The notes below the pieces were generated by a model that saw only the letters and a program-made list of their open reading frames with translations, had not been told where the DNA came from and did no database searches. From a bacterium (lineage in GTDB: Bacteria > Patescibacteriota > Minisyncoccia > Moranbacterales > UBA2206), in NCBI GenBank assembly GCA_029567195.1, contig JAKQLJ010000038.1, positions 1 to 62,298 of the forward strand: a stretch of DNA of 62,298 bases, read 5' to 3'. A program made the position numbers and the translations under genes. Positions 30,814 to 54,184 of this stretch are shown piece by piece. The first letter of the stretch is position 1. The number at the start of each line of letters is the position of its first letter.

Positions 30814-31380
30814 ATGATACTCAAACGCAACTTTTATAATCAAAATACGATAAGGGTCGCCAAAGAGCTTCTTGGCTGTTTTTTGGTACGGGAATACAGG
30901 GGGAAAATTATAAAAGCCATTATCACAGAAGTAGAGGCTTATCGCGGCGAACACGATCTAGCCAGTCACGCATCAAAAGGAAGAACTGACCGCACGGAAA
31001 TTATGTACGGCCATCCGGGATATGCCTATATCTATATGATCTACGGGATGTATTTTATGTTAAATATCGTGACGGAAGAAAAAGATTTTCCGGCCGCAAT
31101 CCTGATCCGCGCTATAAAAATTACAAATTCATCCTCCTCTGCCCGAGGGGAGGAATTGAAGGAGGGGAGAGAGATAAAAGGTCCGGGGAAAATGACAAAA
31201 TTCTTGCATATCGATAAATCTTTAAATGGTCATGATCTGACTAAAAGAAAAAAGCTTTGGCTGGAATCTGCTGCTAATAAAAAGCGTCTAAAAATCATAA
31301 AATCCCCGCGGGTGGGGATTGATTATGCACGTCATTGCAAAAGTTGGCAGTGGAATTTCAAATTCGAAAATAAATCTTAA
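30814..31380 (+). CDS. mpg: DNA-3-methyladenine glycosylase (AAG/MPG family)
   Basis: ITEVEAY.G..D.ASH, AYIYMIYG, AILIRA, GPGK, RVGI. Confidence 0.93.
   Translation: MILKRNFYNQNTIRVAKELLGCFLVREYRGKIIKAIITEVEAYRGEHDLASHASKGRTDRTEIMYGHPGYAYIYMIYGMYFMLNIVTEEKDFPAAILIRAIKITNSSSSARGEELKEGREIKGPGKMTKFLHIDKSLNGHDLTKRKKLWLESAANKKRLKIIKSPRVGIDYARHCKSWQWNFKFENKS
31128..31172. repeat. In-frame palindromic insertion in mpg (DUF559-flank family)
   Basis: TCCTCCTCTGCCCGAGGGGAGGAATTGAAGGAGGGG, similar to 35453-35494. Confidence 0.65.
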
Positions 31381-31530
31381 TAAGTGGTATTTTGACGAAA
31401 TTATTAATTGATAGGAGATTGTTAATTTGCCGGTTAGGCGAAAGCTATTGACAAATTTTTTATGGCATGATAGTTTAACTAGTCAATAAAAGTTCTTTAA
31501 TGATACTTCAAAAAGAAGAAGGAGAGTTTT

Positions 31531-31761
31531 ATGGATCCAAGGGGAGAACTAGAGAGGAAAAGAGGGGGATTGCCTTCGAGTATTTGTGAATCAATTGAGT
31601 CTTTTTGGGCGGATATGATGCCGGTGGAAAATTACAAACCCGAGTGGTTTAGCGCTTTCATTGCTTTTTGGGCCGCTTGCGGTCTAATAAGCGAAGAGGA
31701 CATGCTTCATTCTGTATTCGTATACGAACAACTTTACCAAGAAGAATTTTCCATAAACTAA
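31531..31761 (+). CDS. Small hypothetical protein
   Basis: TTGACA promoter, AAGGAG SD and a downstream bidirectional terminator. Confidence 0.6.
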   Translation: MDPRGELERKRGGLPSSICESIESFWADMMPVENYKPEWFSAFIAFWAACGLISEEDMLHSVFVYEQLYQEEFSIN

Positions 31762-31805
31762 AACCGCCAAAGTAAAAAATACTGAGGCGGTTTTTTTCGT
31801 TTGTT

Positions 31806-32195
31806 TTATTGTCTGGTTTCTTTGACTTTTTCAAGAGCTAATCTGGCGTAAGCTTCCACAAACCTTTTTTCATCAAACGCCGGGCTCTGGTTAGCTAAAG
31901 CATTTTTCATTTTTCTTTGAAACTCCTGGCTGTGTAAGATTTCCATCGCTTTCATTTTTTTAGCTTCTACGACTTTTTGGTCAGCCCCGGGAGGCGTCAA
32001 TTCTCCGATTTTTTCATAAATTTTGCTGACTAATGCGGCTATTTTATCCAAATTTTCCACAGAAGTCTCAGCCTCTCGCATAACTTTTTTGGGATCAGCC
32101 GTTTCCAATTCGGCGACTTCCCGGTCGCTTAATTCTGTGACTGGTATTTTATTTTCATCCGGCTTTTTTGTTGGAGGCATTTCAAAACCACGCAT
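31806..32195 (-). CDS. Hypothetical helical protein
   Basis: 129 aa charged ORF convergent on the terminator. Confidence 0.6.
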   Translation of the reverse strand: MRGFEMPPTKKPDENKIPVTELSDREVAELETADPKKVMREAETSVENLDKIAALVSKIYEKIGELTPPGADQKVVEAKKMKAMEILHSQEFQRKMKNALANQSPAFDEKRFVEAYARLALEKVKETRQ

Positions 32196-32319
32196 ATGCT
32201 TTATCTTAATTTTTATACTTCTATTCTCTCATAACCTGTTTTTTATGTAAATACCGTCCGGGAGTGGAAAATAATCGGCTCATTTGCTATCATAAAACCA
32301 TAAGTTTTTAAAAAAAATT

Positions 32320-33693
32320 ATGGGAAAATCAATAAATCCGGCTATTTTCAAAGCTTATGATGTTCGGGGCATATATCCGGAGGAAATAGACGAAATGACA
32401 GTTTATAAGACAGCCAAGGCTTATTGCGAATATGTGAAGCCAAGGGAGGTCGTTATTGGATCAGACATCAGGCTTTCATCTCCGTCCTTAAAAAAGGCGG
32501 CAATAAAGGCCGTGACTGATCAGGGGATAAAAGTCATTGATGTGGGCGAAATTTCCACCGACATGCTGTATTTTTCCGTGGCCAATTACGGCTATTCCGG
32601 AGGATTTTCCATAACCGCTTCGCATAATCCAAAAGAATATAACGGTATGAAGTTTGTCCGGGAAAAGTCCCATCCCATTTCTTCCGATACCGGACTTTTT
32701 GAGATAAGGGATATGGCCGTAGAAATGGATCTGGATGAAAGTGTTTTGGAAGGGGAGGCGGACAATAATCTTATCGAGAAGAAAGAAATTCTTGACCAAT
32801 ATATTTTAAAAATAAAATCTTTTGCCGATTTTTCCAAATTCAAGAAGTTTAAAATTGTGGCCAATGCCAATTTTGGTTTGGCTGGAAAGGCGCTAGACGA
32901 GCTTGTGAAAGGAAGTGAAATGGAGATAGTGAAATTAAATTATGAACCGGATGGCAATTTTCCTAAAGGGCGGCCGGATCCCCTGATTCCTGAAAACCGG
33001 GAGGAAATTTCGAAATTAGTTGTGGAATCGGAGGCGGATTTCGGAGTAGCTTGGGATGCCGATGCCGACCGATGTTTCTTCTTTACGGAAAAAGGGGAAT
33101 TTATCGAAGGTTATTTTATCACCGCTCTTTTGGGAAGTATATTTTTGGAAAGAAAACCGGGCGAAACTATCATCCATGATACAAGACTGACTTGGGCGAT
33201 AGAGGATATTGTCAGGGAAAAAGGCGGGCGGGACGTTGCCACCAAGGCCGGCCATGCCTTCATCAAAGAAAGAATGAGAAAAGAAGATGCGGTATTTGGC
33301 GGAGAGATGAGCGCCCATTATTATTTCCGGAATTATTTTTATTGCGATAACGGTATGATTCCGCTGGTGATGATAATGGAGTTTCTTTCTTCTCAAGAAA
33401 AACCTTTTTCAGAAATTATGCGAGAAATGTTTTGGGGAAAATATTATGTTAGCGGGGAAATAAACAACCAAGTGGCTGAAGTGAAAGCGGTTATCGAAAA
33501 AGCCAAGGAAAAATATGCCCAGAGCGCAACGAATGTTGATGAAACAGATGGCGTTTCCATTGAATTTGAAAACTGGAGATTTAATCTTCGTGGTTCTAAC
33601 ACCGAACCGGTTATTCGGCTCAATGTCGAAGCTCGCTCCAAAGAGCTTATGGAAGAGAAAAGAGACGAATTGCTGAAAATCGTTAGAGAATAA
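32320..33693 (+). CDS. Phosphomannomutase/phosphoglucomutase
   Basis: FKAYDVRG, TASHNP, DADADR, GGEMSAH. Confidence 0.95.
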   Translation: MGKSINPAIFKAYDVRGIYPEEIDEMTVYKTAKAYCEYVKPREVVIGSDIRLSSPSLKKAAIKAVTDQGIKVIDVGEISTDMLYFSVANYGYSGGFSITASHNPKEYNGMKFVREKSHPISSDTGLFEIRDMAVEMDLDESVLEGEADNNLIEKKEILDQYILKIKSFADFSKFKKFKIVANANFGLAGKALDELVKGSEMEIVKLNYEPDGNFPKGRPDPLIPENREEISKLVVESEADFGVAWDADADRCFFFTEKGEFIEGYFITALLGSIFLERKPGETIIHDTRLTWAIEDIVREKGGRDVATKAGHAFIKERMRKEDAVFGGEMSAHYYFRNYFYCDNGMIPLVMIMEFLSSQEKPFSEIMREMFWGKYYVSGEINNQVAEVKAVIEKAKEKYAQSATNVDETDGVSIEFENWRFNLRGSNTEPVIRLNVEARSKELMEEKRDELLKIVRE

Positions 33694-33729
33694 AAAAAGA
33701 GGGAACCTGGGAGGTTCCCTGAACTTCTA

Positions 33730-34401
33730 TCAATATTGAAAGCGAATGAGATTGGCTATTCTTTTGATGAGCGGCCAATTATCCCGAATCTGTCCGTGGG
33801 CGCTGGCAAGAGCAAGCGCCAAGGAGATTACCAGCAAAGCGGCGACTAATATAAGAGCCGAAGTATCTTCTATGTTTGAATATTTTAAATCAAACATAAT
33901 AGCCCAACATACGACTGCTGAAGATTCGAAGCCCATTTTCCACCGGCCGAAATTATTGGCGCGAACCTTGGCACCCGAGAGAGAAACGACAGAGCCGACT
34001 GTCAAAAGAATAACTTCAATAATCCCAATAATAAGCATCATTTTGCAGATAAAACCGGCCAGTAGAAAGGGGATTGTTTCATAACTTCTATACATAAAGA
34101 AAAAGGCGGAGAGAATAAGAAACTTGTCCCTGATCTTATCAAGTGCCGATCCTAAAGCTGTGGATTGTCCGAAATGTTTAGCGGCCATTCCATCAAGCTT
34201 ATCTGACAAAACAGCTCCGACCAAGAGGGCAAAAGTATAAAAGCTAGCTGTCTCATGCCATCTTAAGGTTGTCATTTTCCAAGTCAGGAAAAGACCAATC
34301 AGGGTGATAAGGTTGGCCAGCGTGGAATTTATCCAAATTTTCATACAAACCCAAACCGCAGTGGCCGACAGAATTCTCAAAGAACCTTGCAATATAAACA
34401 T
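33730..34401 (-). CDS. CDP-alcohol phosphatidyltransferase family protein
   Basis: ANLIT, DKLDGMAAK..G..T.LG..LDKIRDK. Confidence 0.9.
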   Translation of the reverse strand: MFILQGSLRILSATAVWVCMKIWINSTLANLITLIGLFLTWKMTTLRWHETASFYTFALLVGAVLSDKLDGMAAKHFGQSTALGSALDKIRDKFLILSAFFFMYRSYETIPFLLAGFICKMMLIIGIIEVILLTVGSVVSLSGAKVRANNFGRWKMGFESSAVVCWAIMFDLKYSNIEDTSALILVAALLVISLALALASAHGQIRDNWPLIKRIANLIRFQY

Positions 34402-34438
34402 AACCCCTCCCTTTTTAAGATATATGTTTCTTATATTT

Positions 34439-35449
34439 TTATATAATAAACCCGATTTTCTTTTTGACTTCGTCTAATTTTGTTTTAGCAATTGGTCGGA
34501 CTTTTTTGGCTCCTTCTAGTAATATTTCCAAAACTTTTTCGTCGGACAATTCGGCAATTTTTTTCTGGAAAGGCTTCAAGAATTCCACTACAATGTCAGC
34601 CAGGTCGGATTTGAATTCGGCGTATCCTTTGCCTTCATATTTCTTTTCAATTTCTTTGGCAGAAATATCTGAGAGCAGGGAATAGATATTGATAAGATTC
34701 ATCAGTGCCGGCTTGTCATCCCGATATACTATTTCGCTACCAGAGTCAGTGACGGCTTTTTTAATTTTTCGTCTGACTGTTTCTTCATCATCGGTAAGGG
34801 CGATATAGTTATATTCCGAAGCGGCAGATTTACTCATCTTCTTGGTTGGATCGTCGAGTCCCATAATCCGCATCCCTTCTTTCTGTACATGGCCTTCAGG
34901 AATGACAAAAGTTTCTCCAAACTTATTATTAAAACGCTTAGCTAATATTCTTGTCAATTCGATATGTTGCAGCTGGTCTTCGCCAACCGGCACTAAATTA
35001 GTGTCATACAAAAGAATATCCGCTGCCATAAGAATAGGGTAATTAAAAATTCCCAAGGGGACGCTTTCAGATAAATCTTTATTTCCAGTGGCTAGTTCAG
35101 ATTTGTCTTTAAATTGTGTCATGCGGGACAGCTCTCCCGTTTTTGCGATCGTGTTAAGAATCCAAGACAATTCAGCATGCTCGCTGACATGTGACTGAAT
35201 AAAAAGAGAACATTTTGCTGGGTCAATTCCGGATGCCAGATAGATCTTAGCTACGTCCAATGTTTTTCTTTTTAACTCTTCCGGGTCTCGGGGAAGTGTT
35301 ATAGCGTGCATATCGACTACGCAAAATATCGATTCAAACTCATCCTGAAGCTTTACCCAATTTTTTAGAGCTCCTAAGTAATTACCGATGTGAATTGTTC
35401 CTGACGGCGCTACGCCGGAGAAGATTCGTTTTTTCATTATAGTTTTCAT
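34439..35449 (-). CDS. trpS: Tryptophan--tRNA ligase
   Basis: HIGNY, YPILMAADIL, KKMSKS. Confidence 0.98.
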   Translation of the reverse strand: MKTIMKKRIFSGVAPSGTIHIGNYLGALKNWVKLQDEFESIFCVVDMHAITLPRDPEELKRKTLDVAKIYLASGIDPAKCSLFIQSHVSEHAELSWILNTIAKTGELSRMTQFKDKSELATGNKDLSESVPLGIFNYPILMAADILLYDTNLVPVGEDQLQHIELTRILAKRFNNKFGETFVIPEGHVQKEGMRIMGLDDPTKKMSKSAASEYNYIALTDDEETVRRKIKKAVTDSGSEIVYRDDKPALMNLINIYSLLSDISAKEIEKKYEGKGYAEFKSDLADIVVEFLKPFQKKIAELSDEKVLEILLEGAKKVRPIAKTKLDEVKKKIGFII

Positions 35450-35452
35450 TTT

Positions 35453-35494
35453 CCTCCCCTCCTCAGATGAGGAGGGGAATTAAAGGGGAGGAGT
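35453..35494. repeat. Palindromic flank (3') of the DUF559 gene
   Basis: CTCCCCTCCTCAGATGAGGAGGGGAATTAAAGGGGAGG. Confidence 0.8.
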
Positions 35495-35501
35495 TGAAAA
35501 A

Positions 35502-35852
35502 CTAAAAGTATTTTTCAATTTCCAAACAAACTCCCTTTAAATTATTATTAATGTCATTATTCCAAAACCTTAATACCTTATATCCCAATTTTTGAAAGTA
35601 TGCCGTTCTTTCTTTGTCATACTTTTTATTGTTTTCTAGCGTATGTTGCCAACCATCAAGTTCAATTATCAGTTTCTTTTCCGGGCAGTAAAAATCGGCG
35701 ATATACTTTCCGATAGAGTGTTGCCTTCTAAATTTATAACCAAATTGTTTTATCCTTAATCTTGACCAAAGAATTATTTCCTGTGCAGTCGGGTTGTTTC
35801 TTAATGTTTTTCTTGATTTTAATTTTTCTTTTATATCATGAACGGTTCTCAT
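35502..35852 (-). CDS. DUF559 / Vsr-like small endonuclease
   Basis: LRNNPT..E..LW, KFRRQHSIG.YIADFYC, IELDGWQH, D.ERT, RFWN. Confidence 0.92.
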   Translation of the reverse strand: MRTVHDIKEKLKSRKTLRNNPTAQEIILWSRLRIKQFGYKFRRQHSIGKYIADFYCPEKKLIIELDGWQHTLENNKKYDKERTAYFQKLGYKVLRFWNNDINNNLKGVCLEIEKYF

Positions 35853-35857
35853 TTTTT

Positions 35858-35907
35858 CACCTCCCCTTTGTCCCTTCGGGACATTTCCCCTCATCTGAGG
35901 GGAAAGG
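35858..35907. repeat. Palindromic flank (5') of the DUF559 gene
   Basis: CACCTCCCCTTTGTCCCTTCGGGACATTTCCCCTCATCTGAGGGGAAAGGG. Confidence 0.8.
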
Positions 35908-36007
35908 GTATCGAATTAATTCCATCTTATCCTAGATTTTCAGAAACTACAAGCTATGCTAAAATATTCTCTGTGGCCACAGAGGCTATCTTTTTAATTT
36001 TTTTATT

Positions 36008-36058
36008 CTATGGAATACGCCGCAAAGCGGAGTGGCAAAGCCACTATTCCACGGGGTG
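36008..36058. repeat. Palindromic element, CCCGTT family (intergenic copy)
   Basis: GAATACGCC..GCG.AG.GGC...GCC.CTATT..ACGGGGTGAA aligns with the ychF insert. Confidence 0.7.
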
Positions 36059-36072
36059 AAATTCAAATAATT

Positions 36073-36426
36073 ATGCGAAACATCCAGGAAGTGTATAACG
36101 AACTGCAGGAGAATAAAAAAGAGCAAAAAAGTATCAAGCGAGAATATAAAGATGCTCTTGCCAATGCCAATGAATACGAGGAAACAGTGGCAAAACTAAA
36201 AGAGTTGAAAGAAAAGAAAAAACAAATAGAAAATCTTGCTCAAGCGCGGCTGGGTGTCAGATGGGATGAATATGAGAAGTTGAAAGCTAAATCAACGGAA
36301 CTGGACCAGATGATAACCGATATCGCCATGACTACTCTTATGGACGGAAAAACAGTGGAAATTAAGGATGAATTTAATAATGCTTACGAGCCGGTTTATA
36401 AAATAAGCTTCAGAAAGATTGTATAA
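36073..36426 (+). CDS. Conserved coiled-coil hypothetical protein
   Basis: Likely start MRNIQEVY; the ORF-track N-terminus is derived from the repeat. Confidence 0.7.
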   Translation: MRNIQEVYNELQENKKEQKSIKREYKDALANANEYEETVAKLKELKEKKKQIENLAQARLGVRWDEYEKLKAKSTELDQMITDIAMTTLMDGKTVEIKDEFNNAYEPVYKISFRKIV

Positions 36427-36734
36427 TTGATTGATTTACTTTTTCTTTCCGCAAGAAAAAGTAACAAAAAAAACTCTCTGCCCAAGTTCATTCACTAACA
36501 AATTTTCAGCTTTCTCGCTAAATTTACTAATCTCGCCAAGGCGAGACAAGATGAGTAAATTTTTAACGCTCGAAAGCCTTAATTTGTAGTAGCGTCTGAA
36601 CTAGGCATAATTAAAGAATTAAGAAGAGCGAGATTAAATCTCGCTCTTCTTGAAGAATAATTTATACTTCAATAACCACCCCGGAATGACCACCCCGTAA
36701 AGTCGCCTTAACGGCGATAATGGGGCAAGTTGGT

Positions 36735-38522
36735 CTATACTTCAATAACTACTGGAAGAACCATCGGTCTTCTTTGAGTTTTAGTATAAAGGAATTGTCC
36801 TACTACTTCCCGGATATTGTTGCGGACATAATCCCAGTTGGCCGGTTCATTTGGCGTAGTCTTGGCGGCAATCACTTCTTCCACCTTTTTTTTAGTGGCG
36901 TTAACGAGATCAAAATTTTCTTTGACAAAAATAAATCCGCGGGAAGTTACCTGGGGCTTTCCGATGATCTTTTTAGTCTTGGCGTCAACGATGACGATAA
37001 TCACAAACATTCCGTCTTTAGCCAAAACTTGTCGGTCGCGCAATACTATTTCACCGATATCGCCAACGCCCAAGCCATCCACCATCACATTGTTGAGCGG
37101 AACCTTTTCATTGGTGACTTTTCCATTTCCCCGGTAATCGAATTCAATTACCTTTCCATTTTCGCCGATAAGAATATTTTTCGGATCCATTCCGACGGAA
37201 ACTCCCAATTCTCCGTGAAGTTTGAGCATAAAATAGTTTCCATGGATGGGAATCAAGAATTTGGGCCGAACCAAGTTAATCATCATTTTGAGATCTTCCT
37301 GGCGGGCGTGTCCTCCGGCATGGACATCCATCATTTTATAATTGATGACCTTGGCGTCTTTTCTGTAGATTGTATCCATAATGGATTGCACCGTTCTTTC
37401 ATTTCCCGGAATAACCGAAGAAGAAAGAACGAAGGTGTCGTCTTTGTGGACTTTTACAAATCGATGCTCGCCATTGACTATTCGCATCAAAACAGCATTG
37501 GATTCTCCTTGCGCCCCGGTGCACATAATAACTACTTTGCCGTCCGGATATTCATTAACTTTGTTTATGGGAATAATTGTTCCTTTTCTTGCTTGGATGT
37601 ATCCCAGGGTTCTGGCAATTTCCACGTTAGTTTTCATGGAATAACCGTCAACAGCTACTTTTCGGCCATGCTTTTCAGCGGCTGTGATGATAGACTGCAA
37701 ACGGCTGATAAGAGCCGAAAAAGTGGCAATGATCAAACGGCCTTGGGTGCGTTCAAAGATTTCATCCAGTGTTTTGGCAATTTTTGACTCCGATAGGGAA
37801 TAGCCGGGAGTTCGAGAATCAGTAGAGTCGGACATAAGGGCGAGGATATTTTCACTACCAAGCCGGGCAATTTTAGCGATGTCAGCCGGAGCGTCACTGA
37901 TAGGAGAATGGTCAAATTTGAAATCGCCGGTATGGATGATTGTTCCAACGGGGGTAGAGATGGATAATCCCACCGCGTCCGGGATAGTGTGATTGACATG
38001 GAAGAATTCTATACTGAATGCCCCCAATCTTATTCGATCTATTTTTTTAACTGTGTGGATATTTAGAGATTTTTTGTCTTTATAATCATCCTGGCGCTTG
38101 ACGACAATACCTCTGGTGAGCTCTGTCATGTAGATAGGCGGATTGCCCAAGCCTTCCATCAAATGGGGAATGGCGCCAATATGGTCATAATGTCCATGGG
38201 TGATAATCACTCCGCGGATATTTCTTTCCTTCCCCTTCAAATAGGTGATGTCAGGAATGAGATAATCTATTCCAGGCATGTCTTCGTCAGGAAACTGAAG
38301 TCCCATGTCGACAATAACAATGTCTTGACCATATTCAAAAATGGTCATGTTACGGCCCACTTCTTCCAGTCCTCCGAGAGGAATGATCCGCAAATTATTT
38401 TTAGAACCAAAATTGCGATTTTGGTTTTGCCTGCTTGTTTCTGCTGCGGGCATAAACTTTCCGGTTTGGCCGGATAAGGAAATGCCAGGAGAATTCACAG
38501 GCGAACTGTGTTTTTTAAACAT
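36735..38522 (-). CDS. rnj: Ribonuclease J
   Basis: PLGGLEEVGRNM, THGHYDHIG, HTGDFK, VHAGGH. Confidence 0.97.
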   Translation of the reverse strand: MFKKHSSPVNSPGISLSGQTGKFMPAAETSRQNQNRNFGSKNNLRIIPLGGLEEVGRNMTIFEYGQDIVIVDMGLQFPDEDMPGIDYLIPDITYLKGKERNIRGVIITHGHYDHIGAIPHLMEGLGNPPIYMTELTRGIVVKRQDDYKDKKSLNIHTVKKIDRIRLGAFSIEFFHVNHTIPDAVGLSISTPVGTIIHTGDFKFDHSPISDAPADIAKIARLGSENILALMSDSTDSRTPGYSLSESKIAKTLDEIFERTQGRLIIATFSALISRLQSIITAAEKHGRKVAVDGYSMKTNVEIARTLGYIQARKGTIIPINKVNEYPDGKVVIMCTGAQGESNAVLMRIVNGEHRFVKVHKDDTFVLSSSVIPGNERTVQSIMDTIYRKDAKVINYKMMDVHAGGHARQEDLKMMINLVRPKFLIPIHGNYFMLKLHGELGVSVGMDPKNILIGENGKVIEFDYRGNGKVTNEKVPLNNVMVDGLGVGDIGEIVLRDRQVLAKDGMFVIIVIVDAKTKKIIGKPQVTSRGFIFVKENFDLVNATKKKVEEVIAAKTTPNEPANWDYVRNNIREVVGQFLYTKTQRRPMVLPVVIEV

Positions 38523-38625
38523 AAATTTTATTTATTGTGTCGCTTGTTTTTAAAATTAAAAATAAGCAAAAAAGTGTTAATTAGTTAATTTAATTATAGT
38601 TGAAAAGAAAATTAAATTTTGAAAT

Positions 38626-41625: not shown

Positions 41626-41629
41626 AACT

Positions 41630-46323: not shown

Positions 46324-46364
46324 TTTTTACCCTCATTTCCCCCGAAAAAAGAGGATTTATATGC

Positions 46365-46443: not shown

Positions 46444-46659
46444 TGTGGATAACTTTAATTTGCCTATTCTCTCTTATTTTATATAATACAAGCACGGACA
46501 GATAATTCCTTGTCAATCTACTTTTTGGGTGTTTAGCCAGTTAATGTTAAAAATAAATAAACAATTTAATACTGGCGTATGAATTATAGACATTGGAAAA
46601 TTTATAATATTTTTATCCTTGGGGAGGGCACGCTTTAGGCGTGTTTTTTTGTCCCCTTG

Positions 46660-46785
46660 TCCCCCACCACTTTTACATTTTTTTGTAGACTGAATATTTA
46701 AAAAGTATCCATTTAGTAATTAAGAAAAATAGTGAATTTTATTAGGTTTTTTGTGCCAAAGGCACAATGTAAAAGTGGTGGGGGA
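46660..46785. repeat. 126-bp segment bounded by perfect 20-bp inverted repeats (MITE-like)
   Basis: TCCCCCACCACTTTTACATT (46660-46679) / AATGTAAAAGTGGTGGGGGA (46766-46785). Confidence 0.7.
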
Positions 46786-46998
46786 TAAACTTGATTTTTT
46801 CGGTAAAATGTGCTATAATGGACTGTTAAAAATAAAAAGGAAGTTCTTTAAATATTCATTCCTGAATATCTCCCAAATAAAGCAAAAAACCAAATTGACT
46901 CTCCAAAGGCGGTTTTTAATCGCTTTTGGAGAGTCAATTTGGCGGACTACAAAACAAGAAAAACGCCCTTGTTTATTCAGGGCGGGAAGGAGGTTTTT

Positions 46999-47247
46999 AT
47001 GGGAAACCAATGTATCAGGTGTCGTGTAACGTGGGGAGGAGGTCCTGATATAGATGGATGTTACTCCCATGGGCTTTGTGAGAAATGTCTGAAAGAGGCA
47101 TTGACGCCTCTTTACAGAAAACGGCAACGCCAGGAAGGCAATTTCGATTGTTTTGGAACGGCTTGCGGATATTGCGACCAATTTGGTTGCAAATACCGCA
47201 AAATATGTTTGGGATCAGAGACAGAAACATTAGTAGCTCACGCTTAG
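46999..47247 (+). CDS. Small Cys-rich protein, 82 aa (Zn-ribbon plus EGNFDCFG 4-Cys motif)
   Basis: AAGGAGG SD; CIRC...HGLCEKC and EGNFDCFGTACGYCDQFGCKYRKIC. Confidence 0.7.
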   Translation: MGNQCIRCRVTWGGGPDIDGCYSHGLCEKCLKEALTPLYRKRQRQEGNFDCFGTACGYCDQFGCKYRKICLGSETETLVAHA

Positions 47248-47428
47248 CGTGGAAAGGGATGCGAGATGAATTGCGCTAAGTGACGGGACCCGTTCGTGAA
47301 TTTCCGAACGCGGTCCCTTTCTTTTTGCCCAAAAACAATTAGTGGTGTAGAATTAGCAAATCAATTAAAATATAATGACTCGAATTGTTCGAATAGTAAT
47401 TTGAATAGATCGAATGTCAAACAAACAG

Positions 47429-48391
47429 ATGAACAGAAAAATAATCTTAAGCATTGTGTTTTTGGTGGTAATGGTATTTTCCGGTTGTTCATTGAGCCAG
47501 AAATCAACCGACATTGGTCAGGAAGAAGCAAAAAACAAAGCTTTGAAATTTGTCACTGAAAACCTGGTGCAACCGGGAACAAAATTAGAGGTTAAAGAGG
47601 TTATAAAAGAAAATGATCTCTATAAAATAACTCTCGATGTTTCCGGACAGGAAATCATTGCCTATATGACGCAGGACGGAAAGAAATTTTTTCCGTCTGT
47701 AATGGATATGGAAGAAGTGGAACAAGAGGTGGCGGAAAGTAAAAAATCCAGCGAAGAGGAACAGAAAGAAGTGCCAAAACAAGATGTTCCCGAAGTGAAG
47801 CTTTTCGTGATGAGCTATTGCCCTTATGGCACGCAAATTGAAAAAGGGATTTTGCCGGTTCTTGCTGCGTTAAAAGACAAAATAAATTTCAGTCTGGAGT
47901 TTGTTGATTATGCCATGCATGATAAAAAAGAAATTGATGAAAATTTGCGCCAATATTGCGTCCAAAAAAACGAACCGGCCAAGCTTGCCAGTTATCTCCA
48001 GTGCTTCCTTAAAAACGGCAATGCTCAGGAATGTCTGAATTCCAATGGCATTAACTCAGCCAGTTTAAATAGTTGTGTCAACGCGACAGACAGCCAGTTT
48101 AAAATTACAGAGAAATACAATGATAAAAGCCAATGGGAAACATCGCAATTCCCGCCGTTTGATGTGAATAAGGATGATAACGGAAAATATGCCGTTGAGG
48201 GTTCGCCATCCCTTGTCATCAATGAAACGAAAATTGCTTCCGCTCGCGATGCCGCTTCGCTTTTGAAAACTATTTGTTCCGGCTTCAATATCCCTCCGGA
48301 AGAATGTCAGGCGGAACTTTCCTCCACTGTTCCTTCATCCGGTTTTGGGGAAGGTAGCGGATCCGGATCCAACGCTTCCTGCGGGGAATGA
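47429..48391 (+). CDS. Lipoprotein with a thioredoxin-like (DsbA/GILT-like) domain
   Basis: Lipobox FSGC, FVMSYCPYG, GSP motif, several additional Cys. Confidence 0.75.
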   Translation: MNRKIILSIVFLVVMVFSGCSLSQKSTDIGQEEAKNKALKFVTENLVQPGTKLEVKEVIKENDLYKITLDVSGQEIIAYMTQDGKKFFPSVMDMEEVEQEVAESKKSSEEEQKEVPKQDVPEVKLFVMSYCPYGTQIEKGILPVLAALKDKINFSLEFVDYAMHDKKEIDENLRQYCVQKNEPAKLASYLQCFLKNGNAQECLNSNGINSASLNSCVNATDSQFKITEKYNDKSQWETSQFPPFDVNKDDNGKYAVEGSPSLVINETKIASARDAASLLKTICSGFNIPPEECQAELSSTVPSSGFGEGSGSGSNASCGE

Positions 48392-48395
48392 TAAG

Positions 48396-48433
48396 TCACA
48401 TAACACGTAACACATAACACGTAGCACATAGCA
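48396..48433. repeat. Heptamer array (TAACACA/TAACACG)
   Basis: CACATAACACGTAACACATAACACGTAGCACATAGCA. Confidence 0.75.
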
Positions 48434-48542
48434 TTATATAAAATCAGGCTGTTTTTGAGCCTGGTTTTTAGTTATCCACAGGGGAGGGTTGCAGTGATAT
48501 TTAATCAGTGATAGAATAACACTGTAATATATAAATAAAATT

Positions 48543-48585
48543 GTCATTCCTGCCAAAGCTCCATCTACCGGCAGGCCGGGGTGAC
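48543..48585. repeat. Degenerate GTCATTCC...GGGTGAC element with a CTACCGGCAGG core
   Basis: Related to 8190-8287; lies just upstream of the lexA ATG. Confidence 0.5.
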
Positions 48586-48596
48586 AAGATAAACTC

Positions 48597-49265
48597 ATGC
48601 AAAAACTAACATCAAAGCAAAAAGATATTCTGGAAATAATCCGGGAATATATCAACCAAAAAAAAGAAAACCCTACCAGCTACCGGATTCATAAGGATTT
48701 GGTTTCCAACGGTTCCAAAGACAGTTTGAAATCAGTGATGCAAGTTATCGAAGCGCTGGAAAAAAAGGAACTGATAAAAAGAGATGAGAACAAGAAAATA
48801 TATGTCATTGAGAATGACAGCTATGCTAATTTAAAAAATATTTTTTCCGTTCCCGTTTATGGTCTGGCTTCTTGCGGAGATGCCTTGGCTTATGCCGAAG
48901 ACAATGTTGACGGTTTTCTTCAAATATCCAAAAGTCTTTTTCGAGGGAGCAATTCTGCCCAGCTTTTTGCCGTTAAGACGCTTGGAGATTCCATGGACAA
49001 AGAAAACATTAATGACGGTGATTATGCTATTTTTGAAAAATACGATTATGCGTCAGGAAAGGAATTGGAAGGAAAAATTGTAGTAGCGGTCATAAACGGT
49101 ATGGCAACGATCAAGCGCTATAAAAAAGTTTCCAATGAAATAATCGGTCTTTTTCCGCATTCTACCAATAATTTCCATCAGCCGATATTCATCCACAAAA
49201 CCGACTCTATTCTTATCGCCGGAATTTTCAAGAAAGTCCTGCCGGTAAAATATGTGAGCCTTTGA
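48597..49265 (+). CDS. lexA: LexA transcriptional repressor
   Basis: LT.KQ wHTH, VPVYG.ASCG cleavage site, GDSM serine and TIKR lysine. Confidence 0.88.
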   Translation: MQKLTSKQKDILEIIREYINQKKENPTSYRIHKDLVSNGSKDSLKSVMQVIEALEKKELIKRDENKKIYVIENDSYANLKNIFSVPVYGLASCGDALAYAEDNVDGFLQISKSLFRGSNSAQLFAVKTLGDSMDKENINDGDYAIFEKYDYASGKELEGKIVVAVINGMATIKRYKKVSNEIIGLFPHSTNNFHQPIFIHKTDSILIAGIFKKVLPVKYVSL

Positions 49266-49318
49266 GAAAATGTAAAAATAAAATCTCAAAATGCAAAATG
49301 ACAAATCAAAATTTAAAA
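49265..49318. repeat. Left heptamer array flanking the four-helix-bundle gene
   Basis: AAAATGT/AAATCTC/AAAATGC/AAAATGA units. Confidence 0.65.
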
Positions 49319-49662
49319 ATGAATTTAAGAAAAGGCTTTATGTTTTTGTTTTAAGATTAATAAAATTTATTGATAAACTACCAAGAAATTCTGTTTCTGA
49401 TGTAATGGGAAAACAACTATTGAGAAGTGGTACAAGCATCCTGGCTAATTATATTGAAGCTAATTCTGCCAGTTCTAAAAAAGACTTTATAAATTTTTTT
49501 ACTCATTCATTGAAGTCAGCAAATGAATCTAAGGTTTGGGTATGTTTACTGAAAGACACTGGCAGGGGCAACAATAAGGAATCGGAGGTATTGCTTAAGG
49601 AGCTGACAGAAATAGCTAATATTATTGCTTCAAGTATAATTACGCTTAAGGGTAAAAAATAA
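49291..49662 (+). CDS. Four-helix-bundle protein (23S rRNA IVP / Avd-like family)
   Basis: QLLRSGTSI.ANY.EA..A.SKKDF..F..SLKSANESKVW. Confidence 0.92.
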   Translation: MQNDKSKFKNEFKKRLYVFVLRLIKFIDKLPRNSVSDVMGKQLLRSGTSILANYIEANSASSKKDFINFFTHSLKSANESKVWVCLLKDTGRGNNKESEVLLKELTEIANIIASSIITLKGKK

Positions 49663-49718
49663 TTTTGTATTTTACATTTTCATTTTGATTTTTGAGATTT
49701 ACACTTTGATTTGTGATT
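49662..49718. repeat. Right heptamer array (inverse of the left array)
   Basis: TTTTGTA/TTTTACA/TTTGATT/TTTGAGA units; the reverse complement shares AAATCTCAAAA with the left array. Confidence 0.65.
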
Positions 49719-49820
49719 AGGAATCTTGCTCAAAATATTTTTGTATAGTATGGTGTATTAGATAAAATTGAATATTAAGTACCCAATTTGGGGAAGGTTT
49801 TTGGTTTTCCAGACAATTTT

Positions 49821-52800
49821 ATGGATAAATTAGTCATCAGAGGCGCGCGGGAACACAATCTAAAAAATATAAATTTAGAATTGCCGCGGAACAAATTTAT
49901 AGTTTTTACGGGGATTTCCGGCTCAGGCAAGAGCACGCTGGCTTTTGATACCATTTTTGCCGAAGGCCAAAGGCGTTATTTGGAAAGCCTTTCCAGTTAT
50001 GCCCGGCAATTTTTGGGACAAATGAACAAGCCGGAAGTCGATCTGATCGAAGGTTTGAGTCCGGCCATTTCCATTGATCAAAAAGCGGCTTCGCATAACC
50101 CGCGTTCGACCGTCGGAACAGTGACGGAAATTCATGATTATCTTCGTCTTCTTTATGCCAAAATCGGTGTGCCGCATTGCCCGATCCGCCTCCCCGGCGG
50201 ACAAGTCTGCGGTCGGGAAATAAAAAAAATGTCGACAGATGAAATTGTGGATAGGATAATCGATTTGTGCTCTCCCTCCCCTCCGTCCCGCGGACGGGAC
50301 ACCTCCCCTCGGGCAGGTGAGGAGGATCGTGTAGTAAAAATACTTTCTCCTGTCGTCCGGCAAAGAAAAGGAGAATATTCAACATTGCTTTCTGAAATGT
50401 TTAAGCGTGGATTTTCGCGGGCTATTGTCAATGGAAAAGAGATAAAGCTGGAAGCAAAAATGGATGGCAAAATAAAACTAGAACGCTATAAAAAACATGA
50501 CATTGATATTTTAGTGGATGAAATGGAAATTAATGATGAAAATATAAGCCGAATTTTTGAAGGAGTAGAGAGAGCGCTGAAACTTTCGAGTGGGATAGTA
50601 AAAATTAAACTGCCTCCAAGCTCTTCTGTTTCGACAAAGTCGAAACTTTTCCCCTTAGGAAAGGGAGAAGGAAAGGGTGGTGAATTTATTTTTAACCAAA
50701 AACTGGCGTGTCCGGTCCATGAAGTTGAATTTCCAGAATTGGAACCGAGACTTTTTTCTTTTAATAGTCCTTTTGGCGCTTGTCCGGCTTGCGAAGGACT
50801 GGGAACAAAAAGAGAGATTGATCCGGTTCTGGTTGCTCCCGATATGAATAAGACTATTGCCCAAGGCGGCCTTATGCCATGGAGTTACAAAAAAAATAAT
50901 TGGCAGGGAACAATTTTGAGGGCGGTTACCAATTATTTTCACATTTCGGACAATGTGCGCCTCAGAGATCTTTTGGAAGATGATTTTAATATTTTAATGT
51001 ATGGCAGGCCGGTTCAGGAAAATAATAATGATGAAGAATTAACTTACGAATATTCCGCCGAAGGTGGAGATTACGAAAATATTCCGGTAACATTACGTTC
51101 CAAAACCGGAACAAACTGGAAATATAATATGGAATGGCGGGGAGTTGTCGGATATCTGGAAGATCGTTATAAAAAAACTGATTCGGAAGCGGTGCGGGAA
51201 GATATTGAAAAATATATGTCCAATAACCCCTGTTCTCTTTGCAAAGGAACGAGATATAAAAAAGAAGTGATGCTGGTAACGGTCAACAGAAAGAATATAA
51301 GCGAAATTTCTGCAATTAGCGTAGAAAAACTTCTGGAATTTTTTGATGGATTGACTCTTTCCAAAAATGAGGAAATTATTGCTGGCAGAATTTTAAAAGA
51401 AGTGAAAAATCGTTTGAAATTTTTGGAAAATGTCGGCCTCGGGTATCTTACCCTTTCCCGAGCCGCCAATACTTTGGCTGGAGGAGAAACGCAAAGAATT
51501 CGCCTGGCATCTCAAATCGGTTCGCAACTGGTTGGCGTTCTTTATATTCTCGATGAACCGTCAGTCGGACTTCATGCCCGGGATAATAATAAACTTCTGG
51601 AAACTTTGCTAAAACTCAGAGATGTCGGCAATACTTTGATAGTAGTGGAGCATGATGAGGAGACAATGAGAGCGGCTGATTATCTTGTTGATATCGGTCC
51701 GGGAGCCGGAAAATTAGGGGGAGAAATTGTGGCCGAAGGCAGTCCGGAAGAAGTGATAAGAAATAAGAAATCACTTACTGCCGCCTATCTCAGAGGAGAA
51801 AAAGAAATAGAAATTCCGTCTTTCAGGCGTCCAGTTAAAAACAAAAAATGGATAATCGTTCGGGGAGCGAGAGAAAATAATTTGAAAAATATTACGGTGG
51901 AATTTCCGTTAAAAGTTCTGACAACGGTCACTGGCGTTTCCGGATCGGGAAAATCAACGTTGGTGGAGGATATCCTATTCAAATCCCTCTCTTCCAAAAT
52001 TATGCGCTCTCTTGATCGGCCGGGAAAACATACGGAGATTATCGGTAGCAATTTTATCAACAAAGTCATTATGATTGACCAATCGCCGATTGGTCGAACG
52101 CCGCGATCCAATCCGGCCACATACACCGGACTTTTTTCTTCCATTCGTGAACTTTTCGCCTCCACCAGAGACGCCAAAGCCAGAGGATATATGCCCGGCC
52201 GCTTTTCCTTTAATGTTAACGGCGGAAGATGCGACAATTGCCGGGGGGAGGGATTTTTGAAAATTGAAATGCAATTTATGCCCGATGTTTATCTGCCGTG
52301 TGATGTTTGTCAGGGAAAAAGATACAATCGGGAGACGCTCCAAGTTAAATACAAGGATAAAAATATTGCCGGCGTTTTGGAGATGACGGTAGCGGAAGCT
52401 AAGGAATTTTTTCAAAATTTTCCGGATATTTATGATAAGCTAAAAGTCCTGGAAGAAGTGGGGTTGGGCTACATTCAGCTTGGCCAGCCGGCAACGACAC
52501 TTTCCGGCGGTGAAGCGCAAAGGATAAAGCTGGCAACGGAACTGGCCAGGCGTTCCACTGGCGATACTCTTTATATCTTAGATGAACCGACCACCGGCCT
52601 TCACTTTGAAGATATCAAGAAGCTTTTAAATGTTTTAAATCGTTTGGTTGATGCCGGAAACACTGTCGTAGTTATTGAACACAATATGGATGTTATAAAA
52701 ACGGCTGATTGGATAATTGATTTAGGGCCGGAAGGCGGAGAAAATGGCGGAAAAGTAATAGTTACCGGCACACCGGAAGAAGTAATTAAATATAAAAAAG

Positions 52801-52847
52801 AGAGTTGGACGGGGAAATATCTTAAGGAAGTTTTAAGTAGCAAGTGA
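49821..52847 (+). CDS. uvrA: Excinuclease ABC subunit A, copy 1
   Basis: GISGSGKST, two ABC signatures, Zn fingers; three in-frame palindromic insertions. Confidence 0.98.
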   Translation: MDKLVIRGAREHNLKNINLELPRNKFIVFTGISGSGKSTLAFDTIFAEGQRRYLESLSSYARQFLGQMNKPEVDLIEGLSPAISIDQKAASHNPRSTVGTVTEIHDYLRLLYAKIGVPHCPIRLPGGQVCGREIKKMSTDEIVDRIIDLCSPSPPSRGRDTSPRAGEEDRVVKILSPVVRQRKGEYSTLLSEMFKRGFSRAIVNGKEIKLEAKMDGKIKLERYKKHDIDILVDEMEINDENISRIFEGVERALKLSSGIVKIKLPPSSSVSTKSKLFPLGKGEGKGGEFIFNQKLACPVHEVEFPELEPRLFSFNSPFGACPACEGLGTKREIDPVLVAPDMNKTIAQGGLMPWSYKKNNWQGTILRAVTNYFHISDNVRLRDLLEDDFNILMYGRPVQENNNDEELTYEYSAEGGDYENIPVTLRSKTGTNWKYNMEWRGVVGYLEDRYKKTDSEAVREDIEKYMSNNPCSLCKGTRYKKEVMLVTVNRKNISEISAISVEKLLEFFDGLTLSKNEEIIAGRILKEVKNRLKFLENVGLGYLTLSRAANTLAGGETQRIRLASQIGSQLVGVLYILDEPSVGLHARDNNKLLETLLKLRDVGNTLIVVEHDEETMRAADYLVDIGPGAGKLGGEIVAEGSPEEVIRNKKSLTAAYLRGEKEIEIPSFRRPVKNKKWIIVRGARENNLKNITVEFPLKVLTTVTGVSGSGKSTLVEDILFKSLSSKIMRSLDRPGKHTEIIGSNFINKVIMIDQSPIGRTPRSNPATYTGLFSSIRELFASTRDAKARGYMPGRFSFNVNGGRCDNCRGEGFLKIEMQFMPDVYLPCDVCQGKRYNRETLQVKYKDKNIAGVLEMTVAEAKEFFQNFPDIYDKLKVLEEVGLGYIQLGQPATTLSGGEAQRIKLATELARRSTGDTLYILDEPTTGLHFEDIKKLLNVLNRLVDAGNTVVVIEHNMDVIKTADWIIDLGPEGGENGGKVIVTGTPEEVIKYKKESWTGKYLKEVLSSK
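50186..50207. repeat. In-frame mini-palindrome (RLPGGQV) inside a UvrA CxxC
   Basis: CCGCCTCCCCGGCGG core; 7 extra residues relative to uvrA copy 2. Confidence 0.65.
50271..50325. repeat. In-frame insertion in uvrA (DUF559-flank family)
   Basis: CTCCCCTCCGTCCCGCGGACGGGACACCTCCCCTCGGGCAGGTGAGGAG. Confidence 0.85.
50612..50680. repeat. Second in-frame insertion in uvrA (DUF559-flank-like)
   Basis: GTTTCGAC-AAA-GTCGAAAC then TTCCCCTTAGGAAAGGGAGAAGG. Confidence 0.7.
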
Positions 52848-52888
52848 CAAGTGGCAGGTGACAAGTGACAAGAGATAAATGACAAGGA
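52843..52888. repeat. Heptamer array (GTGACAA)
   Basis: AAGTGACAAGTGGCAGGTGACAAGTGACAAG. Confidence 0.75.
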
Positions 52889-52891
52889 AAT

Positions 52892-54184
52892 ATGGAAACG
52901 TCAATCAAAAAACTAAAATCCCTTCCTCAATCTCCCGGCGTTTATATTTTTAAAAATAAGGCGGGAAATATTTTATACGTGGGAAAAGCCGGGTCGCTTA
53001 AAGACCGGGTCGGATCATATTTTCAGAATCGTGACGGGTATGCACGGCCGATCGAAATATATATCTCTGAAGTTACAGATCTCGAAATCAGAAAAACAGA
53101 TACGGTTTTGGAAGCGTATATATTGGAACAGAGTTTAATAAAAAAATACCAGCCAAAATACAACATGATGTCTAAGGATGACAAAAGCTTCTGTTATGTT
53201 GTGGTTATAAAAGAGGATTTTCCAAGATTTATGATTATGCGGAAAACGGAATTAAAAGACCTCATCCTAACCCTCTCCTTATCAAGGAGAGGGAGTCAGA
53301 AGGAAAAAATTTATGGGCCATATACTTCTAAAAAACAGATTGAAACTGTTTTGAAAATCCTAAGAAAAATATTTCCATACCATGCCAAGCCACAAAAAAC
53401 AGAAAAAGGATGCCTGGATTATCATATCGGTCTTTGTCCGGGGCCTTACGACGGGGCGATTTCCAAGAAAGATTACCAAAAAAACATTCGAGCGATCCGG
53501 ATGATTTTAGAAGGAAAAAAATCCGGACTCGTAAAGAAAATGAAAAAAGAGATGCTGGAGCATTCCGATAATCAGGATTATGAAAGGGCGGCGAAACTGA
53601 GAAATCAGATGTTTGCGTTGCAACATGTGCAGGATATTGCACTCATAAACAATGAATTTTCCCCCTCTCCTCTCCGTCCCGAAGACAGGACACCTCCCCT
53701 TGGGCAGGGGAAGATGAAATTGATAAGGATTGAAGGCTATGATATATCCAATATCTCTGGGAAATATTCCGTAGGATCGATGGTGGTGTTTGATAATTCC
53801 GAAGGGGAAATAAAATCCAATAAAAATCAATATCGAAAATTCAAGATAAAAACTGTCGAAGGGGCTAATGATGTCGGAGCGATGGAAGAAGTGCTAATGC
53901 GCCGATTTCGCAATAATTGGGCATTGCCGAATTTAATAATCCTCGACGGCGGACGGGGGCATCTCAATATGGCCCGGAGAGTTTTAAGAGTTTATCACTT
54001 GGATATTCCAATCTTGGCCGTTGCCAAAGGACTGACCAGAAAGAAATTAGATTTCTGTTTTTGGGGATCGGTGCCGAAAATTCCTAAAAATATCATTGAA
54101 CAAATAAGAAATGAAGCGCATCGATTTGCCATTAAATATCACCGTGATTTGAGATCAAGGGAAGCTGTGAAAACTTTTAAATAA
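52892..54184 (+). CDS. uvrC: Excinuclease ABC subunit C (short form, no C-terminal HhH)
   Basis: PGVY.F, YVGKA..LK.RV.SYF, UVR domain, IEGYDISN, DGGRGH, RNEAHRFAI. Confidence 0.95.
   Translation: METSIKKLKSLPQSPGVYIFKNKAGNILYVGKAGSLKDRVGSYFQNRDGYARPIEIYISEVTDLEIRKTDTVLEAYILEQSLIKKYQPKYNMMSKDDKSFCYVVVIKEDFPRFMIMRKTELKDLILTLSLSRRGSQKEKIYGPYTSKKQIETVLKILRKIFPYHAKPQKTEKGCLDYHIGLCPGPYDGAISKKDYQKNIRAIRMILEGKKSGLVKKMKKEMLEHSDNQDYERAAKLRNQMFALQHVQDIALINNEFSPSPLRPEDRTPPLGQGKMKLIRIEGYDISNISGKYSVGSMVVFDNSEGEIKSNKNQYRKFKIKTVEGANDVGAMEEVLMRRFRNNWALPNLIILDGGRGHLNMARRVLRVYHLDIPILAVAKGLTRKKLDFCFWGSVPKIPKNIIEQIRNEAHRFAIKYHRDLRSREAVKTFK
53259..53296. repeat. In-frame hairpin insertion in uvrC
   Basis: CTCATCCTAACCCTCTCCTTATCAAGGAGAGGGAG. 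Confidence 0.75.
53659..53713. repeat. In-frame insertion in uvrC (DUF559-flank family)
   Basis: CTCTCCTCTCCGTCCCGAAGACAGGACACCTCCCCTTGGGCAGGGGAAG. Confidence 0.85.

Follow-up and report, generated by a model that had tools for sequence, protein, structure and literature searches.

A repeat family shared by the DUF559 locus and neighbouring repair genes

The DNA analysed here, hereafter the window, is a stretch of 62,298 nt, contig C1 of an 829-kb Moranbacterales genome (labelled G000; 54 contigs, 38.8% G+C, ~87% complete), and our subject is a short palindromic repeat which brackets a DUF559 nuclease gene in this window and recurs inside DNA-repair genes on the same contig. The region holds mpg, the gene of a methylpurine-DNA glycosylase (30814-31380, + strand; Pfam PF02245, E = 6.6e-58), trpS for a class-I Trp/Tyr-type tRNA synthetase (34439-35449, - strand; Pfam PF00579), the DUF559 gene (open reading frame (ORF) 35502-35894, - strand), a first uvrA (uvrA-1; 49788-52847, + strand, 1019 aa; Pfam UvrA_inter, UvrA_DNA-bind and ABC_tran), uvrC (52892-54184, + strand, 430 aa; Pfam GIY-YIG, UVR and UvrC_RNaseH_dom) and a second uvrA (uvrA-2; 54273-57107, + strand; Pfam and pairwise alignment), which is free of inserts and served as an internal comparator. 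Seven GC-rich patches lie in mpg (31123-31179), on both flanks of the DUF559 gene (35446-35500 and 35851-35914), in uvrA-1 (50266-50332 and 50611-50678) and in uvrC (53257-53300 and 53657-53723). A preliminary description of this DNA had located these patches and claimed that the DUF559 flanks and the in-gene copies form one family, and the model searches described below bear this out.

For the core word CCTCCCCT, 1.5 occurrences would be expected in the window; it has 10, and none of 100 shuffles contained 10 or more. We built a covariance model (CM), R1, from seven clear copies aligned as a tag and two hairpins, and the genome scan which the preliminary description had proposed returned 14 copies at E < 1e-3. 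A structure-only scan gave 14–16 copies in the genome compared with 0 in three shuffled genomes, and a hidden Markov model (HMM) of units that have no middle hairpin (the short form) added further copies. The union of these searches is ~22–23 units in the genome, and 7 of ~23 copies lie inside the 22.6-kb stretch of these patches (binomial p ~2e-6). Among 101 related genomes (hereafter relatives, labelled G0xx; contigs of the source genome are labelled C1, C8, C10, C27 and so on), CM R1 matches are present in 54. An unbiased scan of GC windows for copies was also tried and was dropped as too noisy.

The DUF559 gene lies exactly between two inverted units

The product of the DUF559 gene is a Vsr-fold PD-(D/E)xK nuclease (Pfam PF04480, E = 1e-34) which NCBIfam groups with the YcjD family, and its closest solved structure is PDB 3HRL (E = 7e-21). 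Translation likely starts at the ATG at 35852, just after GGAGGTG, which gives a protein of 116 aa. The gene is single-copy in this genome and occurs in 36 of the 101 relatives; 30 orthologues, with a mean identity of 55%, have an intact YivDF...IElDGxQH...RFWN motif.

The gene sits exactly between two inverted units whose tags point inwards. The unit on its 5' side (35851-35914, + strand) is a full three-part unit with the tag toward the gene (CM R1 71.8 bits, E = 8e-16; single-stranded DNA fold z = -4.1), and that on its 3' side (35438-35504, - strand) consists of the tag CTCCTCCCCT and the hairpin TTCCCCTCCTCA/TGAGGAGGGGA, has no middle hairpin, and was detected both by CM R1 (21 bits) and by the structural scan. 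The ORF fills the gap between them, the purine tail of one unit giving GGAGG before the ATG and the stop codon abutting the tag of the next. At the right end of this cassette the ATG of trpS abuts the repeat, and the purine arm again gives a GGAGG Shine-Dalgarno-like word (sequence AGGGGAGGAAAATG).

This layout is conserved. The preliminary description had considered that DUF559 genes might not generally be flanked by these palindromes, but 28 of 30 DUF559 loci have CM R1 matches beside the gene, and ~45 of the 54 matches fall in the ~12 kb that adjoin the genes. The match on the left flank is on the minus strand and that on the right flank on the plus strand regardless of the strand of the gene; thus the tags face the DUF559 gene. 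An independent structural scan found an inward unit upstream at 25 and downstream at 19 of the 30 loci, compared with 2 of 57 control windows. DUF559 and the repeat are genuinely linked throughout the order.

A gene-less twin of the cassette (compared with window 35438-35908) is present in the atpH-atpA spacer of the same genome, at C10:33790-33926. Its left end (C10:33790-33843) is identical to the cassette end 35851-35914 at 50 of 54 nt (93%), and its right end (C10:33860-33926) is 98% identical over 57 nt (C10:33863-33919) and identical at 62 of 67 positions overall. A spacer of 25 nt replaces the ORF, and, as at trpS, the following gene has its ATG directly at the right end. Alignment of this spacer with the ends of the DUF559 ORF was no better than with random ORF positions, and the twin may be either a deletion derivative or an unfilled doublet. 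The (-,+) orientation is common to all nine close pairs that have no gene between them, of which two are in the source genome and seven in the relatives (chance ~4e-6).

In 23 relatives the trpS upstream spacer was found to have no DUF559 gene, even in the two (G024 and G018) where the divergent neighbour gene is the same as here. DUF559 is upstream of trpS only here among the 24 genomes, and the cassette is thus a lineage-specific insertion. Elsewhere the cassette occupies the atpG-atpD spacer (G013, G069 and G093) or stands between uvrA-1 and uvrC (G010:C3:9801-14180, locus L091). The sole printed hint that we found is a table row (PMC9881135) in which the enrichment of DUF559 among predicted inversion targets is given as 14-fold.

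The units share the mirror-repeat design of BoxC

A unit is 45–70 nt long and consists, in this order, of a pyrimidine tag, an optional variable hairpin and a homopyrimidine/homopurine hairpin. In a structural alignment of 107 copies, taken from the source genome and 30-odd related ones and fitted to the model, 98% of helix cells are paired, and compensatory double changes occur at all 11 pairs, far above both controls. The first (middle) hairpin varies in sequence and length and is absent from some units. The second is made of C-G and T-A pairs alone, never G-C or A-T, and of its six pairs five have 18–50 double changes each and the sixth has 5; hence one arm consists of pyrimidines throughout and the other of purines. 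The 5' tag mirrors the pyrimidine (5') arm, agreeing with it at 7.62 of 9 positions in mirror register, compared with 5.04 of 9 in direct register and 5.38 ± 0.14 when arms were permuted among copies (maximum 5.93 in 2000 permutations). A mirror repeat together with its complement constitutes an intrastrand-triplex (H-DNA-like) motif. Single copies folded as single-stranded DNA with Watson-Crick tools gave z values from -4.1 to +0.3 over the window copies, and it is the covariation at the level of the family, rather than such single-copy folds, that is the real structural evidence.

Intrastrand-triplex repeats named TMECO were described in E. coli and other bacteria by Holder et al. (2015; PMC4666352), and those of E. 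coli were said to be 'always located intergenically' and to have no mobility gene nearby. The short units of the present family (uvrC 'a', miaB, ligA, leuS and many DUF559 flanks) read CCCTCACCC-TAA-CCCTCTCC..GGAGAGGG, which is almost the BoxC sequence of E. coli, and the short-unit HMM matches the E. coli BoxC beside ycjD (L096, 5207-5241; E = 1.3e-5 in 8 kb); with the middle hairpin in the model, as in the CM, there was no significant match there. The gene ycjD ends in a degenerate BoxC, and another copy lies 170 nt downstream. The repeats are of the BoxC/PIT/TMECO design, in a form specific to Moranbacteria, with a triplex that is predicted from the sequence. Earlier accounts of BoxC/PIT reportedly include those of Bergler (1992) and of Hoyne and Maher (2000). 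Although these repeats have been known since 1992, from hundreds of bacterial genomes, we know of no report of their function, route of spreading or protein partner.

In-gene copies keep the reading frame at sites that are empty in most orthologues

The unit in mpg (31123-31179; CM R1 33 bits, E = 8.5e-6) is inserted antisense and in frame, in a loop after AAILIRAIKI, and encodes TNSSSSARGEELKEGREIK. Twelve Mpg orthologues have a short loop at this place, and G081, which belongs to a different family, has the same element at the identical site and in the same orientation. In uvrA-1 both units are in sense orientation and in frame: unit 'a' (50266-50332; CM R1 70.2 bits), at the N-terminal edge of the UvrB-binding domain, encodes CSPSPPSRGRDTSPRAGEEDR, and the diverged unit 'b' (50611-50678; CM R1 28 bits, E = 1.5e-4), at the C-terminal edge of the same domain, encodes SSSVSTKSKLFPLGKGEGKG. 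In a pairwise comparison with UvrA-2 they add 18 and 19 aa, close to the 17 and 19 or so residues estimated previously, and most of 30 UvrA-1 orthologues (73–84% identical) have neither insert, site 'b' being variable. In uvrC, both units lie on the + strand. Unit 'a' (53257-53300), BoxC-like and with no middle hairpin, reads CCTCATCC TAA CCCTCTCCTT..AAGGAGAGGG and adds the peptide LILTLSLSRRGSQ in frame to the linker after the GIY-YIG domain, a linker which is variable in orthologues; it was found by the structural scan and by nhmmer (E = 7e-8; fold z = -3.7). The full three-part unit 'b' (53657-53723; CM R1 64.2 bits), also in frame, encodes FSPSPLRPEDRTPPLGQGKMK in the linker that joins the UVR motif to the RNase-H-like domain and is missing from many orthologues. 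UvrC orthologues are short or different at both sites. An AlphaFold2 model of UvrC, computed with an alignment of 11 rows, reached a mean predicted local distance difference test (pLDDT) score of 62.5; both insert regions have low confidence (pLDDT < 50 for residues 248-275), but the model is too weak for this to count for much.

All five in-gene copies are open in the frame of the host and encode peptides rich in Pro, Gly, Ser and Arg, in agreement with the in-frame Pro/Gly/Ser-rich additions, and the new protein loops, that had been claimed for them. The frames differ between copies and both orientations occur; thus the thing that is repeated is an element at the DNA level and not a peptide module. 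That orthologues might have loops of equal length had been put forward as an objection, and most of them proved to be shorter: the expected empty sites were found for UvrA-1, UvrC and Mpg, but the target duplications sought along with them were not clearly seen at the one UvrB pair that was compared as DNA. Within one genus, UvrB of G054 is empty at the site, that of G043 has other content, and those of G051 and G026 carry the unit. Judging from these alignments, the in-gene copies are true insertions in interdomain linkers. Empty sites, presence and absence within a genus, and near-identical copies in unrelated genes show that the family copies itself to new sites. In total, 14 of the ~22 copies of the source genome are in-frame parts of ORFs, and so are 31 of 60 copies sampled from relatives.

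Some other extra segments were noted in the same or similar proteins. UvrA-1 has a third segment relative to UvrA-2, NNNDEELTYEYSAEGGDYENIP (window 51021-51086, residues 412-433), which is non-palindromic and has no match to our models, and orthologues carry different inserts in that region. TrpS of G004, G023, G062, G066 and G069 gave two-piece matches that break near residue 120-128, which suggests in-frame insertions. A YfcE-like metallophosphoesterase of the source genome (C29:2487-3104) contains, in frame, the segment HPELDSGSKSNRFRIPASPAGGKAGMTNK, which seems to stem from a repeat.

An excess of repair and replication genes among the hosts

The source genome has 14 coding copies in 12 genes, and 6 of the 14 are in DNA repair or replication genes. 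The hosts are mpg, uvrA-1 (two copies), uvrC (two), ligA, cca, ksgA, miaA, miaB, leuS, a B12/radical-SAM gene, a FemAB-like gene and, with a weak copy, a membrane glycosyltransferase-like gene; those outside the window were identified by motifs and Pfam-annotated orthologues rather than by direct Pfam runs. For the relatives we took two samples picked by CM score alone, 90 loci, some of which were identified through near-identity to an orthologue that had been run against Pfam. There, 16 of 44 coding copies are in genes of DNA repair, replication or recombination, namely LigA (3), UvrD (2), UvrB, Fpg, RNase HII, DnaX (4), DnaE (2) and Xer (2), and the other hosts are Dus, MiaA, TilS, CCA, LepA, TatD, ComEC, FemAB, BacA, GT4, Pth, ArgRS and others. 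As a control, 30 random, length-weighted ORFs of this genome, 10 of them classified by Pfam and the other 20 by eye, included no repair or replication enzyme (Fisher p = 6e-5 for the relatives and p = 4e-4 for this genome), and when distinct host families were counted, 8 of 27 were of this class against an assumed share of 10% (p = 0.004). On this evidence the enrichment of repair and replication genes among the hosts, ~3–4-fold, is real.

The bias towards repair genes that had been pointed out previously thus stands against a length-weighted control and in an independent sample from relatives, but the same loops of UvrA-1, UvrC, UvrB and Mpg hold unrelated palindrome families elsewhere (STRGG-type and GQTQGLS-type), which speaks against built-in targeting. 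Because unrelated palindromes occupy the same loops, tolerance would explain the bias better than targeting, and it is also the economical reading since the other hosts are likewise dispensable nucleic-acid enzymes with flexible linkers. These loops of UvrA-1, UvrC, UvrB and Mpg are general insertion-tolerant hot spots, and the excess of repair genes would mainly reflect such tolerance.

At least three more palindrome-derived peptide types, including VETHYNASL/MQDLASL, were seen in frame at the same loops in other genomes (loci L067-L095 for UvrA-1 and UvrC, L098-L126 for Mpg and L194-L196 for UvrB). One of these types also occurs inside a RAYT-like gene of the source genome (C8:20099-20680) and in miaB (C27).

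Interpretation and alternative explanations

We consider it probable, though by no means assured, that a BoxC/PIT-type repeat exists here in three states, arranged around DUF559 genes and, where it has entered genes, translated as loops. In the first state, inverted doublets with inward tags enclose an intact DUF559 gene from start codon to stop codon; in the second, the same doublets are without the gene; the third is that of the solo units. Insertions that survive would be those that keep the frame, are free of stops and fall in interdomain linkers or surface loops, which may be why every coding copy is a loop rich in Pro, Gly, Ser and Arg. Hosts that tolerate them would be long, multidomain, weakly expressed and dispensable proteins with flexible linkers. 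In coding regions the repeats behave, by analogy, as Rickettsia palindromic elements (RPE) do, and they are set around DUF559 much as repetitive extragenic palindromes (REP) are set around the genes of REP-associated tyrosine transposases (RAYT). The part played by DUF559 could be that of a helper of the repeats, REP/RAYT-like, or equally that of a homing-type selfish gene which lodges in the centres of doublets.

Copy number is associated with the gene: CM R1 found a mean of 7.7 copies in DUF559-positive and 2.3 in DUF559-negative genomes (Mann-Whitney p = 2e-5), and in the co-occurrence count repeats are present in 26 of 32 positive and 28 of 69 negative genomes. A series of observations nevertheless weighs against a role of DUF559. 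Part of the association comes from the flanking copies themselves, the p value weakening to 0.008 after two copies per genome are subtracted, and the statistics ignore phylogeny. In ten genomes with 3–21 copies, no DUF559 was detected even at E <= 1. Two of the DUF559-free genomes, G026 and G051, which belong to one genus, share an identical 52-nt core across different genes, the near-identical copies being in UvrB, FemAB, AIR-synthase-like (AIRS), TatD, TilS and VanZ genes, a pattern that looks like recent spread without the nuclease. In G029 an IS200 with its own ends lies between two inward units, as DUF559 does elsewhere. The two flanks of one cassette may be of different subfamilies. The evidence for the repeat itself has limits too: three of the seven window copies have unremarkable folding energies when folded singly, and no target-site duplication was found, the sole filled/empty DNA pair (UvrB) giving an unconvincing ATCG...ATCG.

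The least of the alternatives denies that the patches are mobile and sees in them low-complexity linkers that arose by convergence, or what is left of a single local duplication. Linkers rich in Pro, Gly and Ser are common in multidomain proteins, and shuffled sequence folds as well as three of the window copies do, but the reading frame and the orientation of one and the same nucleotide unit differ from copy to copy, compensatory changes extend over hundreds of copies, intergenic copies exist, and near-identical 52-nt cores stand in unrelated genes of G026 and G051, so that we find this account hardly credible. It is also quite improbable, if less so, that DUF559 is a host Vsr-like mismatch-repair nuclease with a functional link to repair and that the repeats are expression signals which scatter passively. 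The Caulobacter VsrA, a DUF559-domain protein that acts as a repair-type nuclease (PMC12907096), is a precedent for such a role, the cassette of G010 lies within a uvr cluster, the purine tail puts GGAGG 5–25 nt before the DUF559 ATG, and the outer end of the cassette does likewise for trpS and atpA. Solo copies within coding regions, however, cannot be expression signals, and DUF559 is patchy (36/101) and found in different contexts (the trpS spacer, the atpG-atpD spacer and the uvr cluster), which fits a mobile gene better than a housekeeping gene.

Two further accounts give the movement of the repeats to an enzyme. The preliminary description had favoured a nuclease-driven system; taken strictly, DUF559 would act like a transposase, cut hairpins, insert solo units and have a built-in preference for repair genes. 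Inverted units bracketing DUF559 across the order, the gene-less twin in this genome, the higher copy numbers in DUF559-positive genomes, the occurrence somewhere in the order of all four Uvr proteins, LigA, Mpg and Fpg as hosts, and the cassette between uvrA-1 and uvrC of G010 would all suit it. However, the ten DUF559-free genomes that hold 3–21 copies, some of them near-identical, leave the drive by the nuclease unproven; a PD-(D/E)xK nuclease has no strand-joining chemistry, so that host repair would have to complete any insertion; unrelated palindromes occupy the preferred loops as well; the hosts include Dus, MiaA, TilS, LepA, glycosyltransferases and others; and neither a target-site duplication nor a target motif was found in the UvrB filled/empty pair. 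We regard this account as unlikely. Slightly less so, yet still doubtful, is the idea that the units are REP-like repeats moved by RAYT- or IS200-type HUH transposases, with DUF559 as a passenger or homing gene in the doublets. A tag plus a hairpin is the type of substrate read by HUH transposases (IS608, REP/RAYT). Homologues of Y1_Tnp (RAYT/IS200-type) occur in 63 of the 101 genomes, including the repeat-rich, DUF559-free G026, G051, G031, G029, G041, G012, G001 and G090, and the source genome has a RayT-like gene (NF047646, E = 1e-16); IS200 is located within the G029 doublet, and DUF559 fills the centre of its doublets precisely, as homing with the repeats as homology arms predicts. Flanking repeats are a hallmark of REP/RAYT, but none of the three RAYT-like genes of the source genome has repeats within 200 nt, four other Y1 loci in relatives have no CM matches, the Y1 gene of G029 belongs to an ordinary IS200 with its own terminal hairpins, covariation of a mirror-repeat (triplex) kind is no known requirement of RAYTs, and G020 and G056, which have repeats and are DUF559-free, have no Y1_Tnp match either.

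A RAYT as the flanked gene was considered and rejected, as the three Y1-like genes of the source genome are unflanked and the sole Y1 gene between units is that of the ordinary IS200. The latter is a complete element at locus L027 (G029:C24:5368-8429, positions 1501-2297) with a 152-aa Y1 transposase and its own terminal hairpins, and its position inside a doublet means that doublet centres may be landing pads for selfish genes.

Within the explanation that we prefer, a BoxC/PIT-type repeat in three states around DUF559, the nuclease is the most likely candidate for a protein that recognises the folded repeat, given the conserved gene-in-doublet geometry and its echo at ycjD and BoxC in E. coli, yet it would be dispensable for the persistence of the repeats and perhaps also for their spread. 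As a more tentative proposal, which may well prove wrong, DUF559 nucleases could be the missing partners of BoxC/PIT repeats, forming a second repeat-plus-enzyme system like REP/RAYT that reads folded (triplex or three-way) DNA. If so, the partnership would be an ongoing source of linker loops in ultra-small bacteria of the candidate phyla radiation (CPR), foremost in enzymes of nucleotide- and base-excision repair.

Other elements in the window and genome

An unrelated repeat of ~150 nt follows atpH and atpG in the ATP-synthase operon (C10:33075-33225 and C10:36527-36675); it reads GTCATTCTGAAC ... GTGAAGAATC ... CAGATCCTTC ... CCTCAGGATGAC and resembles a miniature inverted-repeat transposable element (MITE) with terminal inverted repeats. 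Another GC-rich palindrome family (TTCCCGC..CCTGCCTACCGGCAGGCAGG..GCGGGAATGACA) is present in the window at 8242-8285 and 48548-48585 and elsewhere in the genome at C10:14926-14984, C38:5161-5231 and C38:72846-72917, and is probably dRS3/RPE-6-like. An Rfam search of the window found the tmRNA gene alone (25896-26291, - strand; RF00023, 158.6 bits).

Comparison with known systems

The REP/REPIN-RAYT systems resemble the present one in that inverted copies of a scattered hairpin repeat stand on both sides of a low-copy enzyme gene, inverted doublets also occur with no gene in them (REPIN-like) and copy number is higher with the gene. The flanked gene here, however, encodes a Vsr-fold PD-(D/E)xK nuclease (PF04480) instead of an HUH (Y1) tyrosine transposase, the DUF559 ORF adjoins the repeats exactly, and many repeat-rich genomes have no DUF559. 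As with MITEs, a gene-less copy has both ends of the gene-bearing element; the gene of the parent element here encodes a nuclease and no known transposase. Vsr-fold (EDxHD) homing endonucleases such as I-Bth0305I have been grouped with DUF559 (PMC3424549). They share with it the fold family, a small self-contained gene, varied contexts and flanks that could serve as homology arms, and the presence of DUF559 at the otherwise conserved trpS site in 1 of 24 genomes is also what homing endonuclease genes show; unlike them, DUF559 is not in an intron or intein, and its presumed target is a repeat with many scattered copies instead of one unique site in a gene.

RPEs are roughly 100–150 nt long. Like them, the present units are palindromic repeats of a reduced genome which form in-frame loops in conserved proteins and leave orthologous sites empty, and the phenomenon would thereby extend to another lineage and another class of repeat, BoxC-type repeats being translated in essential and repair enzymes. 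This also gives a caution for annotation, as extra loops in CPR UvrA, UvrB, UvrC, LigA and other proteins may be selfish DNA and not adaptations. Unlike RPEs, the Moranbacteria units measure 45–70 nt, have the triplex-type mirror repeat and have an associated nuclease gene. The earlier comparison with RPEs stands for the in-frame insertion behaviour but not for the closest repeat, which is found in BoxC/PIT/TMECO. There, too, three blocks are present, the third mirroring one arm of a homopurine/homopyrimidine hairpin, and the E. coli DUF559 gene ycjD ends in or beside BoxC copies, so that the conserved gene-in-doublet layout points to one candidate protein partner for BoxC/PIT repeats. The Moranbacteria form differs in that most copies add a variable hairpin in the linker, more than half lie in frame inside genes whereas TMECO were reported as intergenic, and inverted doublets are strict. 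BoxC/PIT/TMECO is the closest known repeat, and RPEs are a behavioural analogue, set apart by their design.

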